The position numbers and the translations under genes were made by a program. The notes under the pieces were generated by a model. The model was not told the origin of the DNA, made no database searches, and was given only the letters and a program-made list of their open reading frames with translations. This document shows positions 1-9,585 of a stretch of DNA of 64,000 nt, piece by piece. The stretch lies in NCBI RefSeq assembly GCF_054482525.1, contig NZ_CM137006.1; one strand, given 5' to 3'. Numbering within the stretch: position 1 is the first letter of the stretch; each line of letters opens with the position of its first letter.

Positions 1-552
1 ACATTAAACACACAGGGGACCGCTCATTCTGGCGCTACTACTAGTTTGTGGGGTAACTCTACCCGTCCGGTTGTATATGAAGTTGGTGCTGATGGTGGCG
101 CGTATATGTTCTATGCGCAGAAAAATACCGATAACACCTATATGTTAAGCGTTAATGGTGCATGTCATGCCACCGCATTTAACCAGCATTCCGACCGGGA
201 TCTGAAAGACAACATTCAGGTGATCGATAATGCAACCGACCGCATCCGTAAAATGAACGGCTATACATACACGCTTAAAGAAAACGGTATGCCCTATGCA
301 GGTGTCATTGCACAGGAAGCTCTGGAAGCAATCCCAGAAGTTGTAGGTTCCGCAATGAAATATCAGGACGGTGCAAGCGGATCGGAAGGTGAAGAAGGTG
401 AACGTTATTACACAGTAGATTATTCTGGTGTTACTGGCTTGCTTGTTCAGGTAGCCAGAGAGTCAGACGACAGAATAACAGTACTGGAAGAAGAAAACGC
501 AGAATTAAGGCAAAGATTATCTGCAATTGAGGCGACGCTTGCGTCTAAATAA
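1..552 (+). CDS. Phage tail fibre/tailspike protein, C-terminal fragment with S74-type intramolecular chaperone domain; 5' end lies outside the window
   Basis: Frame is open from nt 1 (ORF track starts at TTG 46). Translation has an SDRDLKDNI motif (Ser-Lys dyad as in self-cleaving tail-fibre chaperone domains) followed by a C-terminal coiled-coil-like LEEENAELRQRLSAIEATL. Confidence 0.6.
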   Translation, partial: TLNTQGTAHSGATTSLWGNSTRPVVYEVGADGGAYMFYAQKNTDNTYMLSVNGACHATAFNQHSDRDLKDNIQVIDNATDRIRKMNGYTYTLKENGMPYAGVIAQEALEAIPEVVGSAMKYQDGASGSEGEEGERYYTVDYSGVTGLLVQVARESDDRITVLEEENAELRQRLSAIEATLASK

Positions 553-563
553 TATTAAGGGCT

Positions 564-881
564 ATGCGCCCCGTTTTATTGGGTAGGATGAAAATGGATA
601 TAACACCTTTTCTTCATGCGCTTTGTGCTGTGGCTGCGCAGGTACTGGTTGGTTTTTTTACCGGAAACTGGGCTTACGGGGCGATAGCCGGTTGTACATT
701 CTTCATTGCGCGGGAACACACCCAGGCAGAATATCGCTGGATTGAAATGTTCGGGCATGGCAAGCGGATTAACATGCCGTGGTGGGGCGGTTTTGATCCA
801 CGTGCATGGGATGTGGCAAGCCTGATGGATTTTGCTGTGCCGGTGGTGGCGTGTCTGCTGATCTGGATGTTGATCCGTTAA
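564..881 (+). CDS. Small hydrophobic membrane protein at the prophage end (possible moron); function unknown
   Basis: 105-aa ORF directly after the tail-fibre fragment with about three hydrophobic segments; alternative ATG starts at 588 and 594, the latter with an AGGA Shine-Dalgarno. No family recognised. Confidence 0.4.
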   Translation: MRPVLLGRMKMDITPFLHALCAVAAQVLVGFFTGNWAYGAIAGCTFFIAREHTQAEYRWIEMFGHGKRINMPWWGGFDPRAWDVASLMDFAVPVVACLLIWMLIR

Positions 882-1229: not shown

Positions 1230-1291
1230 CGGTCTCGAAAACCGGAGTAGGGGCAACTCTACCGGGGGTTCAAATCCCCCTCTCTCCGCCA
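1230..1291 (+). repeat. 3' 61 nt of tRNA-Ser(CGA) (serU-like) without the 5' half; probable prophage attR core
   Basis: Sequence GGTCTCGAAAACCGGAGTAGGGGCAACTCTACCGGGGGTTCAAATCCCCCTCTCTCCGCCA matches the anticodon-loop to CCA end of a class II tRNA-Ser; upstream bases cannot form an acceptor or D arm. Confidence 0.6.
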
Positions 1292-1839
1292 CTTTATCAA
1301 TGACTTATCTCCCGACTTCCCGCCTTGCTTTTCCTAAACAGAACAATCGTAGAATATTCTTGAAGGGTTAGATCGTCACTGTTTTCTGTTCGATACTGTG
1401 ACATTCAGCACTTGATTCGCTATGGATCTGACAGGAAGGTCTCGAGCGAAAATCTGCAGTTATTCAGTCGTTTTCTTATCGGTCACCATTATTCTTTTAG
1501 ACATTGATCCTACGAAGCTGCCGCAAAGTTGGTGGTGGGAACTGAATTTGCGTAGAGAAGGGGTCAATAATTGAGCCAAAAAAGGAACGCGGCCGTCAGA
1601 TTAAAGCCGCGGGACAAAGTCCATAATTTCCAAGAGTTGTTGAATTTCCCAGCTTTTTTGAAAGCCTTTGTATCATACTAACAAGTAAAAAAGGTTTAAA
1701 TACCAAAATTAACCTATATTTCTGGTTAGCTTTACCATGACAGATGACTTGCTCCTGGAGACATTGGCGCAGCCAGTCTGTATTGGTGAGTTGTGTATTT
1801 ATTGTTCGCCGTTTTCTCAGTTTTTTTCTACAGACATAA

Positions 1840-2819: not shown

Positions 2820-3574
<755 letters not shown>

Positions 3575-3678: not shown

Positions 3679-4209
3679 TCAGGCTCCGGATGACTTTCGT
3701 TTTTTCTCCAGCTCCTGGCGCTTTTTTTCCAGGAGATGCTCCTGCATGGCTTTCAGATATGCATTTTCTGCGCGAAGATAACGCAGCTCATTCTTCATCT
3801 CTTCCGGCGTCATGTTTGCCTCGTTTTCATGGGTATCATCAGAACGGGTCATGCTTTTCTCCTTCCTGCGCCTGATAAAGGCCTCATTACCAGATTTGCG
3901 GTAGCCTTTTATCCAGTTTTTAACCGTGTTGTGGCTGGGAATGTTAAACCGGGCAGCTACCCGGGGTAGAGACTCAGAATGCCCGAGAGCATAAAGAACC
4001 ACGCAAAGTTTATCTTCAGGAGAATAGCTACGCTTGTGTCTGCAATCCAGTGCCCGAGGACCGTGAAGAAGAAAAAGATTAATCCAGTGTGAGAGGCTGG
4101 TGTGAGAAAGTTGAAAGAGTTTTGCCGTAGAAATGATGCCTGCATGACCAGCCAGGTAATGATTTACAGCGGCAAGTTTTACTTCAAATGAATGTTTCAT
4201 AAACTGCAC
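3679..4209 (-). CDS. IS3-family transposase OrfA (helix-turn-helix DNA-binding subunit)
   Basis: 176-aa ORF with a basic, leucine-zipper-like C-terminus; slippery heptamer A AAA AAG at plus 3721-3728 in the 0 frame. Confidence 0.85.
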   Translation of the reverse strand: MQFMKHSFEVKLAAVNHYLAGHAGIISTAKLFQLSHTSLSHWINLFLLHGPRALDCRHKRSYSPEDKLCVVLYALGHSESLPRVAARFNIPSHNTVKNWIKGYRKSGNEAFIRRRKEKSMTRSDDTHENEANMTPEEMKNELRYLRAENAYLKAMQEHLLEKKRQELEKKRKSSGA

Positions 4210-5949: not shown

Positions 5950-6051
5950 TCACACTTTTTTGTCTTTAGCCAGCAAGAGCCGTTTACTGTTAATCTGTCA
6001 GGGAGTGTCCTCCCTAACAGTAGCAGAGATCTGCTTTTACATATTTATGCA

Positions 6052-6465
6052 TTAACTGCCACGATAGGTTGAATACCCATATTGGCTAAGTAATAAAGGC
6101 ACATGATAATGCTCGTTCACTTTATTAATATGAAATTCAACGGGGATCTCAGGGAAGAGACTTTCAAGATTTTGTTTCTTGAAATAGTCCCCGGTTTTAA
6201 ATACGACACGGTAATCGCCCGTAGTTGCAGTTTGCTCGGGCCACAGTGCCTTAATTCGTCCATCCTTATCTGTTTTGGCGGTATTAAGTTGTAACCAGCC
6301 GTTATCCGCTTTCTTTTCAAGAGTGACTGTCACGTCGGCAGCGGGTTTTCCTGTTTGCTGGTTCAAAATATGCACGCTAAGAATGTTTTGTTGTGCAGCA
6401 TAGACCAAAGAAGGTAATGAAAATGCAGCCGTTACTACGGAGAGTACTAAATAACGCTTTAACAT
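6052..6465 (-). CDS. hiuH: 5-hydroxyisourate hydrolase (transthyretin-like periplasmic protein)
   Basis: 137-aa ORF with signal peptide and C-terminal YRGS signature. Confidence 0.92.
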
Positions 6466-6597: not shown

Positions 6598-7269
6598 ATG
6601 AAGATTCTACTTATTGAAGATAATCAAAGGACCCAGGAATGGGTAACGCAGGGGCTTTCAGAAGCGGGTTATGTCATTGATGCCGTTACTGATGGCAGAG
6701 ACGGGCTTTATCTTGCGCTGAAGGATGATTATGCATTGATCATTCTGGATATTATGCTTCCGGGTATGGATGGCTGGCAGATCTTACAAACGTTAAGAAC
6801 GGCAAAGCAAACTCCTGTTATTTGCCTTACTGCAAGAGATTCTGTCGATGACAGAGTCAGAGGGCTGGACAGTGGGGCAAATGATTATCTGGTAAAACCT
6901 TTTTCATTTTCTGAGTTGCTGGCAAGGGTTCGGGCACAATTAAGGCAACATTACGCTTTGAATTCAACATTAGAAATCAGCGGCTTAAGAATGGACTCTG
7001 TTAGTCAAAGTGTGAGCAGGGACAATATCAGTATTACACTGACGCGCAAGGAGTTTCAGTTACTTTGGCTACTGGCCTCCAGAGCTGGCGAAATTATACC
7101 CAGAACGGTTATTGCGAGTGAAATTTGGGGAATCAACTTTGATAGTGATACCAATACGGTGGATGTCGCCATTCGCAGGCTCCGCGCAAAAGTTGATGAT
7201 CCTTTTCCTGAAAAGCTAATCGCCACAATCCGGGGGATGGGCTATTCATTCGTAGCGGTAAAAAAATAA
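6598..7269 (+). CDS. hprR: OmpR-family response regulator HprR
   Basis: Receiver domain (MKILLIEDN...D...) plus winged-helix output domain; start taken at the internal ATG giving 223 aa (ORF track begins at 6487). Confidence 0.9.
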   Translation: MKILLIEDNQRTQEWVTQGLSEAGYVIDAVTDGRDGLYLALKDDYALIILDIMLPGMDGWQILQTLRTAKQTPVICLTARDSVDDRVRGLDSGANDYLVKPFSFSELLARVRAQLRQHYALNSTLEISGLRMDSVSQSVSRDNISITLTRKEFQLLWLLASRAGEIIPRTVIASEIWGINFDSDTNTVDVAIRRLRAKVDDPFPEKLIATIRGMGYSFVAVKK

Positions 7270-8733: not shown

Positions 8734-9585
8734 TTAACCCGCGTAAGCTGCCAGCATTTCCTGCGCCGCCAGTTTACCCAACGCATTCGCTGCGAAAGGA
8801 CTGTCGCCGGTGAGAACTTTACGGTCCTTATGTACTCGCCCGGTGATGTCGTCATTAATAATGTTCATGCCCATTTTCTTCAGCTCTTCGCCGAAGTACC
8901 AGGTGAGATGACCCGGCATATAGCCTATCTCTGGCGTTTGTTTGTCTGCGGCGTCTGGGAATGCGCAAATGGAATAACCATTCAGTGGGTTATCGCCGTG
9001 GCGAAGCGCCAGAAATGCCGCCGGGCCGTGGCAAAGGGAGATAACAAAACGGTCATTTTTGATTGCCCACTGTAAAGCGGCAGCCACGTTCTGGCTTTCT
9101 GGTAAACCAATAAGTGCGCCATGACCACCAGGAACAAAGATTGCTGCATATTCGCTGTCAGCGTTGAGGCTGGCGACAACATCCGCGAGTTTCTTCGGAT
9201 TGCGGAACAACGATTTATGCTGCTCAAAGAATGGCATTACTTTTTCATCTTTGTGCGGCATAGCCCAGTATTCAAACTTGGTCATCAGACCGGAAATGGT
9301 CGCCACTTCGAATTCGAAACCTGCAGCGTGGAGATGATACAACGGCAGCAACGTTTCAATCGGATGGTTACCGGTCGAGAACAGTTTTCCGTTATCGGTC
9401 GGCAAATAACGTTCGTCCGCGGCGATCACCAGAATTTTATGTTTACCGCGATACGGTTTTGGATAGTCCACGCCATCAAGATCAGAGACAGGACTGGTAT
9501 ATTGGCTAAGCGAATATTCTGAAGGGAAGAATGCATTATCTTCAGCAATATCGACCTGCGGATTTTTACTTGTTTGAACAGTCAT
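8734..9585 (-). CDS. hchA: Hsp31 chaperone / glyoxalase III (DJ-1/PfpI family)
   Basis: 283-aa ORF matching HchA. Confidence 0.95.
   Translation of the reverse strand: MTVQTSKNPQVDIAEDNAFFPSEYSLSQYTSPVSDLDGVDYPKPYRGKHKILVIAADERYLPTDNGKLFSTGNHPIETLLPLYHLHAAGFEFEVATISGLMTKFEYWAMPHKDEKVMPFFEQHKSLFRNPKKLADVVASLNADSEYAAIFVPGGHGALIGLPESQNVAAALQWAIKNDRFVISLCHGPAAFLALRHGDNPLNGYSICAFPDAADKQTPEIGYMPGHLTWYFGEELKKMGMNIINDDITGRVHKDRKVLTGDSPFAANALGKLAAQEMLAAYAG

Follow-up and report, generated by a model that had tools for sequence, protein, structure and literature searches.

Genes and features at the prophage end

The gene analyzed here lies close to the beginning of the window, by which we mean the whole 64,000-nucleotide stretch of DNA under study; coordinates refer to it unless another locus is named. 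The window opens with the 3′ end of a distal side-tail-fibre gene (1–552, plus strand), which encodes a Peptidase_S74 intramolecular-chaperone domain (Pfam PF13884, E = 2.9e-14) followed by a C-terminal coiled coil. The same segment matches phrog_4563 'tail fiber protein' (E = 3e-118), and RefSeq annotates the complete fibre as a 346-aa 'tail fiber domain-containing protein'. After a gap of 41 nt comes the gene for a 95-residue membrane protein (594–881, plus strand), and further on a displaced fragment of tRNA-Ser that constitutes the att core (1230–1296, plus strand). The S74 and phrog_4563 matches on one side and the tRNA-Ser match on the other confirm that the gene sits between a tail-fibre gene and the att core and is the last one before att, as the initial annotation had proposed. 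Beyond the att fragment, the window continues with zinT and then msrQP. Two minus-strand ORFs in overlapping frames (2852–3574 and 3679–4209, found in the segment 2800–4300) resemble the orfA/orfB transposase pair of the IS3 family and are inserted between zinT and msrQ; in W46, an otherwise identical genome that lacks the insertion, the zinT–msrQ gap measures 258 nt.

The initial annotation had described an ORF of 105 codons on the plus strand, starting with the ATG at 564 and ending at 881. This ORF is present as described, but the conserved protein almost certainly starts at the ATG at 594 and has 95 residues instead of 105. The profile of the phage protein family phrog_1443 covers residues 11–105 of the long form, the starts of all homologues correspond to its M11, and RefSeq, in a genome identical to ours over positions 1–1400 of the window, calls the gene at 594–881 (WP_001534124.1, 95 aa, 'hypothetical protein'). 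The in-frame upstream extension MRPVLLGRMK (564–593, plus strand) thus lies outside the conserved protein. In most E. coli loci, moreover, only 9–13 nt separate the end of the upstream gene from the start, too few for such an extension. A Shine–Dalgarno-like AGGA (585–588, plus strand) precedes the ATG at 594 by 5 nt, and a ribosome-binding site is annotated at the same relative position in the phage 21 record. The gene is also less obscure than its earlier description as possibly unannotated implied, since both RefSeq and phage records list it, under the name 'hypothetical protein'.

A large family without an assigned function

The stretch 594–881 is a real, conserved gene encoding a three-helix membrane protein of the uncharacterized family phrog_1443. 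The match to this profile is full-length, with residues 11–105 of the long form aligned to profile positions 1–95 of 97 (E = 2e-57; E = 1.4e-57 with the 95-aa form), and all 55 diverse relatives that we tested match it as well. At the nucleotide level, a median pairwise dN/dS of 0.14 among 59 distinct alleles, taken from 80 IMG/VR prophage loci, indicates purifying selection. At 90% identity the family falls into 576 clusters, and at 50% identity it is covered by 335 representatives, each about 90–110 aa long; its alphaproteobacterial branch contains at least 2345 clusters. Carriers account for 2067 of the 5426 complete E. coli genomes (38%) and have 2 copies in the median and 8 at most, and every copy listed from these genomes is annotated 'hypothetical protein'. 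The exact protein of the window occurs on 627 contigs. Among free phages, the copy in phage 21 is CPT_21_24, 'putative membrane protein', whose DNA is 93% identical and which occupies the same place after the side-tail-fibre genes.

Consistent with the initial annotation, which recognized no family, the searches assigned no function to this protein. Neither Pfam nor NCBIfam nor PADLOC contained a matching family, and the 55 relatives gave only isolated weak matches there; the defence and exclusion models of PADLOC-DB in particular did not match the window protein and gave isolated weak matches in 3 of the 55. In PHROGs the only matches were phrog_1443 and its fragment family phrog_34165, both of unassigned function. 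A sequence-profile search of the PDB yielded nothing significant, its sole match spanning 33 residues that we judged to be a chance alignment, and Foldseek searches of the PDB and BFVD were likewise without significant hits. We found no literature on the protein by accession, PHROG identifier or topic. For serotype-conversion membrane proteins, of the GtrA-like or other kinds, Pfam returned no match with E below 0.7. Clear homology to a tail-assembly or holin family was the observation that, according to the initial annotation, would count against its reading, and none was found in Pfam, PHROGs or NCBIfam.

Three hydrophobic helices and an invariant polar segment

AlphaFold2, supplied with a 32-sequence alignment, predicted three helices at residues 4–23, 26–52 and 74–94 with a mean pLDDT of 91.2, and the hydropathy profile agrees, marking helix 1, the first half of helix 2 and helix 3 as hydrophobic. 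The earlier estimate of about three transmembrane segments was therefore sound. Helix 1 (603–662) carries the near-invariant residues H8 and Q16. The second half of helix 2 (669–749) contains the motif R40-E41-x-x-Q44-A45-E46-Y47-R48-W49-I50, which is followed by a conserved, Trp-rich loop of residues 53–73 (750–812) reading G-x-G-K/R-R-x-N-M-P-W-W-G-G-F-D-x-R-x-W, and helix 3 (813–875) includes the invariant residues D79 and P83; all four segments are encoded on the plus strand. Across the 55 sequences, which diverge down to 31% identity, R40, E41, Q44, W72 and P83 are invariant and H8, A45 and E46 nearly so, while the longer pattern R-E-x-x-Q-A-E-Y-R-W-I ... R-x-N-M-P-W-W-G-G-x-D ... W ... 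D ... P is fixed within subfamilies. Such conservation would not normally be expected of a small membrane protein from a phage. The helix formed by residues 40–50 is conserved on all its faces, which suggests that, in the predicted structure, this region forms a packed mini-domain at the membrane interface and not a simple anchor.

Signals for the orientation of the protein in the membrane conflict with each other. The counts of lysine and arginine (5.6 in the loop versus 0.7 in the C-terminal tail) favour a cytoplasmic loop. By contrast, the Arg-rich turns and C-terminal tails of the alphaproteobacterial members favour a periplasmic one, as does the phage 21 record, which cites a TMHMM prediction of 2 transmembrane domains with both termini inside.

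Three transmembrane helices within some 95–105 residues are also found in class I holins of the lambda S type, and we therefore considered whether the protein could be associated with lysis as a holin, an antiholin or an accessory that adjusts lysis timing. Some members would fit such a role: on one phage contig the stop codon of the gene overlaps the start of a Phage_holin_3_3 gene, in a Comamonas prophage three small overlapping genes of unassigned function come after it, and one distant member among the 55 relatives matches Phage_holin_8 weakly (E = 0.0036). Against this, no holin family matches phrog_1443 as a whole, the window protein ends in ...WMLIR and the E. coli members lack a charged C-terminal tail, and the long invariant polar loop does not resemble holins. 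Lambdoid phages have their lysis cassettes elsewhere in the genome than the fibre and b regions, and the neighbours of the gene in the E. coli loci that we examined were tail-fibre and b-region genes, with none for lysis. Given, in addition, that stand-alone chromosomal copies are conserved in five Aeromonas species and in capsule loci (see below), we regard a role in lysis as quite unlikely.

A probable shared transcript with the fibre gene, and a hairpin read as part of int/att

The position between a fibre gene and att had been taken as typical of a moron, an autonomously expressed cargo gene as defined by Hendrix and colleagues, with a hairpin at about 898–932 as its possible terminator. 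Several observations speak against this label. The gap to the fibre gene is too small to hold a promoter of the gene's own; we saw no sigma-70-like site in these 41 nt by a consensus scan, which could miss a weak or embedded promoter, and promoter-like sites are no more frequent in positions 1–2000 than in shuffled sequence. Other phages leave 0–13 nt between the gene and the one upstream, or have overlapping stop and start codons. From this spacing alone we infer that the gene is probably made with the late (virion) transcript and not as an autonomous moron expressed in the lysogen. Between the fibre stop codon and the conserved start lies a short GC stem of the form GGGC...GCCC followed by TTTTATT (556–582), which is improbable as a terminator, as its folding energy does not depart from that of shuffled sequence (z = −0.2). 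The composition of the gene differs from that of the fibre gene (GC 0.52 versus 0.455; GC3 0.53 versus 0.39), although the odd one out in this respect may be the fibre cassette and not the gene.

The hairpin itself is real (897–932; ΔG −21.5 kcal/mol, z = −3.8). It is the minus strand, however, that carries the T-run, reading ...GCGGCUUUUUACUUUUUAUAUUU, while the plus strand has no U-run; it is not the terminator of the gene. Phage Tritos has an equivalent hairpin, built on different stem bases, about 290 nt downstream of int, whereas its copy of the gene is 1.9 kb away; there the structure accompanies int/att. The match to free phage PhiR47_1 passes through the hairpin and ends at 990. We assign the hairpin, from its strand and from its location in Tritos, to the int/att module as a predicted intrinsic terminator of leftward transcription whose position corresponds to that of lambda tI/sib. 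In lambda, tI/sib is located across attP from int, and the two elements have in common a strong hairpin, a T-run on the int-coding strand, a place just across attP from int and separation from int in the prophage; as far as we tested, their sequences are unrelated.

Overlapping the end of the hairpin is a 66-nt element (925–990) that blastn also detects in other lambdoid phages, in their int-proximal or b regions, namely at 6739–6805 of the Tritos locus (L006; 91% identity) and at 9038–9102 of the phage 21 locus (L002; 85%). In Tritos it recurs about 230 nt downstream of int, with the equivalent hairpin before it. RefSeq (PGAP) places a 'capsid protein' pseudogene fragment at 922–990, a label that is probably spurious. 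The stretch from 991 to 1229 between this element and the att core is AT-rich (GC 37% over 900–1228), and this composition, together with the end of the PhiR47_1 homology at 990, leads us to read it as the attP arm of the prophage. The att core at 1230–1296 is 100% identical to the 3′ part of tRNA-Ser genes annotated in other E. coli; ARAGORN reported no whole tRNA there, which makes it the displaced tRNA fragment of an att site, and Rfam gave partial, T-arm-like matches.

The adjacency of the gene to att is incidental. The same gene precedes sitDCBA in phage 21 and Lambda_4C10, pin in Tritos and in the Qin prophage of E. coli B, dinI-int in PhiR47_1, and baseplate or holin genes elsewhere. 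Most of the initial description has held; its start codon and the assignment of the hairpin as the gene's own terminator have not, and the moron label finds no support.

The constant neighbour is a fibre or tailspike gene

The gene is the last of a side-tail-fibre module and is co-oriented with the fibre genes. Its constant neighbour is the tail-fibre or tailspike gene 0–45 nt upstream, what comes downstream being variable; in 53 phage records and many prophages it always stands behind fibre genes. In the 80 E. coli prophage loci it begins 9–45 nt after either an S74-type distal fibre gene or the gene for a small protein of phrog_1361. The order in E. coli is Stf, an acidic protein of about 92 aa (phrog_1361), an optional S74 distal fibre of 227–346 aa, and then the gene, and phage 21, PhiR47_1, Tritos and Lambda_4C10 have the same arrangement.

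Linkage to fibres extends to unrelated phages. In HP1/P2-like myovirus prophages of Aeromonas and Leclercia, the stop codon of the fibre gene abuts or overlaps the start of the gene, the partner being a Phage_tail_fib protein with or without S74, and baseplate genes follow. A 935-aa pectate-lyase and S74 spike abuts the gene in Desulfovibrio. Its predecessors in Comamonas are J and a 72-aa gene, or else a fibre and a phrog_18574 protein; in Pantoea it stands behind DUF4376 fibre proteins, and in Chelativorans behind a lectin-like fibre. The phage contig with the holin overlap mentioned above, which is of metagenomic origin, places the gene between a fibre-like gene and the Phage_holin_3_3 gene with stop/start overlaps on both sides. 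A strict pairing with S74-chaperoned fibres is rejected by the phage 21-type, Comamonas and Pantoea contexts, which lack S74.

A second uncharacterized partner of the module is the small, acidic, soluble protein of about 92 aa (phrog_1361/phrog_18574) that follows Stf-type fibres. In prophages of E. coli, Comamonas and Pantoea, its gene is found again directly before that of the membrane protein (for instance L001, 5221–5502; L002, 4721–4999; L094, 5714–6001; L107, 5432–5998; L103, 5484–5999). The Qin prophage of E. coli DL21, apparently a laboratory strain of the B/BL21 type (L217, 2067–5424), likewise contains an stf remnant, then genes for 93 aa, for a 234-aa S74 fibre and for the membrane protein (97 aa), after which come a tfa remnant and pinQ. 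If the strain does derive from BL21, a widely used laboratory background would already contain the gene.

The membrane protein does not follow the variation of its neighbours. In a set of 60 distinct E. coli pairs, the gene product averages 92% identity where its fibre neighbours share less than 30%, which argues that it is not tuned to a particular receptor.

This constancy bears on the idea that the protein is a fibre morphogenesis factor, occupying the position of P2 G or lambda Tfa and aiding the folding or attachment of fibres at the membrane. The place directly after the fibre gene, often with translational coupling, in siphovirus and myovirus prophages alike, and the frequent presence of the second small conserved protein alongside would both suit such a factor. 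Yet the protein is unchanged across unrelated fibres, many of which bring their own S74 chaperone, and it is an integral membrane protein of three hydrophobic helices, whereas known fibre chaperones are soluble. Nor did Pfam, PHROG or NCBIfam searches connect it to the Tfa, gp38 or DUF4376-type chaperones. As chromosomal loci devoid of any phage genes also carry phrog_1443 members, we consider this function very unlikely.

Chromosomal relatives near capsule and Kdo genes

About half of the loci retrieved from data with one genome per species lie outside prophages. In five Aeromonas species, the gene comes after a pirin gene and faces genes for a PA4780-type kinase and for two lpxM-type Kdo2-lipid IVA acyltransferases. 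The stand-alone Aeromonas copy occupies one syntenic site (L003, L093, L095, L096 and L099, around 6001–6309), and other Aeromonas strains contain a second, prophage-borne copy behind a P2-like fibre. We rejected the possibility that the 'RIO1' neighbour is a Kdo kinase, as NCBIfam identifies it as a PA4780-type, RIO1-like kinase. In Novosphingobium the gene begins 13 nt after kdsA (identified by its best PDB match, E = 5.6e-108), and in another lineage, represented by five samples, 37 nt after a gene for arabinose-5-phosphate isomerase. A Devosia metagenome-assembled genome and four metagenome samples have it within a kps-like capsule locus, together with Poly_export, KpsC-like Kdo transferases (PDB 6mgb, E = 3e-52), kpsF, kpsU/kdsB (PDB 3oam, E = 3e-38), kdsA and a sugar acetyltransferase. 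Among alphaproteobacterial homologues, synteny with kpsF/U/C/S/D and kdsA is seen in such loci; Sphingomonas-type contexts lack it, and it has no bearing on the prophage copy in the window.

Other neighbourhoods offer no clue, with ligA, nadB and cfa beside the gene in Sphingomonas and genes for LysR, GNAT, porin and transporter proteins in Leclercia and Silvania. One member (L010, JGI contig P0106, 1395–1694) resides in a non-phage island with a RelE/MqsA-type toxin–antitoxin system, a Fic protein and a transposase. When metagenomes were scanned with the alphaproteobacterial alignment, 76 of the 80 loci recovered were E. coli prophage copies, and one extra kpsF-linked contig was added. All the E. 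coli copies that we saw are prophage-borne; the kps locus of E. coli thus has no such gene, which weighs against the Kdo reading discussed below. By a rough, post hoc estimate, Kdo-glycolipid genes occur within 3 kb in roughly 4 of 13 independent chromosomal contexts, a proportion that, as far as such an estimate goes, exceeds the chance expectation.

The miscellaneous character of many chromosomal neighbourhoods would be expected if the protein served generic membrane homeostasis and the gene were a hitchhiker, or a recombination anchor, at the 3′ boundary of an exchangeable fibre cassette. Its high conservation beside hypervariable fibre genes and the difference in GC3 fit this explanation too. 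What it does not account for is the selection on protein function shown by the dN/dS and by polar residues that are invariant across bacterial classes, and hitchhiking alone hardly explains why unrelated phage lineages show the linkage to fibres independently. We accordingly rate it as unlikely.

The chromosomal contexts matter equally for superinfection exclusion of the kind exerted by T4 Imm, P22 SieA and HK97 gp15, in which DNA entry would be blocked at the cytoplasmic membrane irrespective of the outer-membrane receptor. These proteins resemble the phrog_1443 protein in size class, membrane location and carriage by prophages; it is encoded by many prophages, often in several copies per genome, and its failure to co-vary with the receptor-binding protein is what a post-adsorption block predicts. 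HK97 gp15, a small membrane exclusion protein with chromosomal homologues, provides a precedent even for the copies outside prophages. However, the protein has neither sequence nor fold similarity to exclusion or defence models in Pfam, PHROGs and PADLOC, and the gene is placed for late expression with no promoter-like site of its own. The chromosomal homologues, furthermore, are embedded and co-oriented in capsule/Kdo loci, and the family spans four bacterial classes whose injection machinery and membrane partners differ. Exclusion by this route is therefore doubtful, if less far-fetched than a role in lysis or fibre assembly.

Discussion

In this study we examined a small gene at the end of an E. 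coli prophage, corrected its start codon and the assignment of the hairpin next to it, and placed it in phrog_1443, a family that was already known but is functionally unannotated. A lysogenic-conversion or exclusion role for this gene is putative but plausible, the homologues in capsule loci being indirect evidence for it. The reading that we favour, with a probability of roughly 0.3, is that the protein is a late-expressed inner-membrane factor that would act on Kdo-linked surface glycoconjugates and so alter the layer in which the fibres find their receptors. Three features suggest this: the fixed linkage to fibre or spike genes, the independence from fibre specificity, and the relatives in capsule/Kdo loci. 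Fibres with S74 or pectate-lyase domains are typically directed at polysaccharides, and many of the partner fibres and spikes have domains of polysaccharide type (S74, pectate lyase, lectin).

In this proposal, the end of helix 2 (R-E-x-x-Q-A-E-Y-R-W) and the M-P-W-W-G-G-x-D loop would together make up the mini-domain at the membrane interface, which would bind or act on a conserved, lipid-linked, Kdo-containing surface glycoconjugate or on the machinery for its export or assembly. Candidate targets are the Kdo-linker pathway of capsules (KpsS/C/MT) and Kdo2-lipid A/LPS core. The outcome would be an altered surface polysaccharide layer, the one that fibres and tailspikes bind, and because the target would be independent of serotype, one protein could serve phages with unrelated receptor-binding domains. 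The phage might benefit through exclusion of other phages, or its progeny might be spared adsorption to debris.

Our confidence in this mechanism is low; its link to capsule and Kdo genes is guilt by association, and the association was noticed post hoc. The main evidence against the Kdo reading is that the sequence offers no clue to an activity, that the topology signals conflict, and that the family is abundant in sphingomonads, bacteria that have no LPS.

Receptor-linked accessory genes are well known in phages, examples being llp of T5, cor of phi80 and N15, neuO of CUS-3, and the small O-antigen polymerase inhibitors of epsilon15 and D3. Like these, the phrog_1443 gene encodes a small envelope protein beside a receptor-binding gene, for which we propose a change or masking of the receptor, although the protein has no sequence similarity to any of them. 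Llp and Cor have been described as lipoprotein-type blockers of one outer-membrane receptor each and are expected to track receptor specificity. The phrog_1443 protein, by contrast, is an inner-membrane protein of three helices that shows no co-variation with the fibre. From Imm, SieA and gp15 it is set apart by the lack of homology, the placement for late expression and the relatives inside capsule/Kdo loci, and from lambda S-type holins by the lack of a family match and of a charged C-terminal tail and by the invariant polar loop.

A bolder version, which we think unlikely but state for its consequences, is that phrog_1443 represents a so far missing part, or a modulator, of Kdo-linked glycolipid pathways that sits in the inner membrane and does not depend on serotype, the pathway being that of either the lyso-PG-Kdo linker of capsules or Kdo2-lipid A. 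It would have been kept in the kps-like loci of Alphaproteobacteria, and its capture by phages of several morphotypes would have been followed by fixation beside their receptor-binding genes, as a general-purpose switch for the polysaccharide layer that serves as receptor on the host surface.

Mechanistically, nothing shown here is surprising yet, and if the Kdo hypothesis is false, the gene is no more than another conserved hypothetical that closes a tail-fibre module. It is nevertheless a common gene to be left without an assigned function, present in more than one-third of complete E. coli genomes and often in multiple copies, and its fibre-linked position in unrelated phages, combined with its relatives in capsule/Kdo loci, yields a concrete hypothesis that can be tested cheaply. 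If the hypothesis is true, prophages would possess a widespread, receptor-independent route for altering the surface of their host cell, and the family could identify an unrecognized component of ABC-transporter-type capsule pathways.
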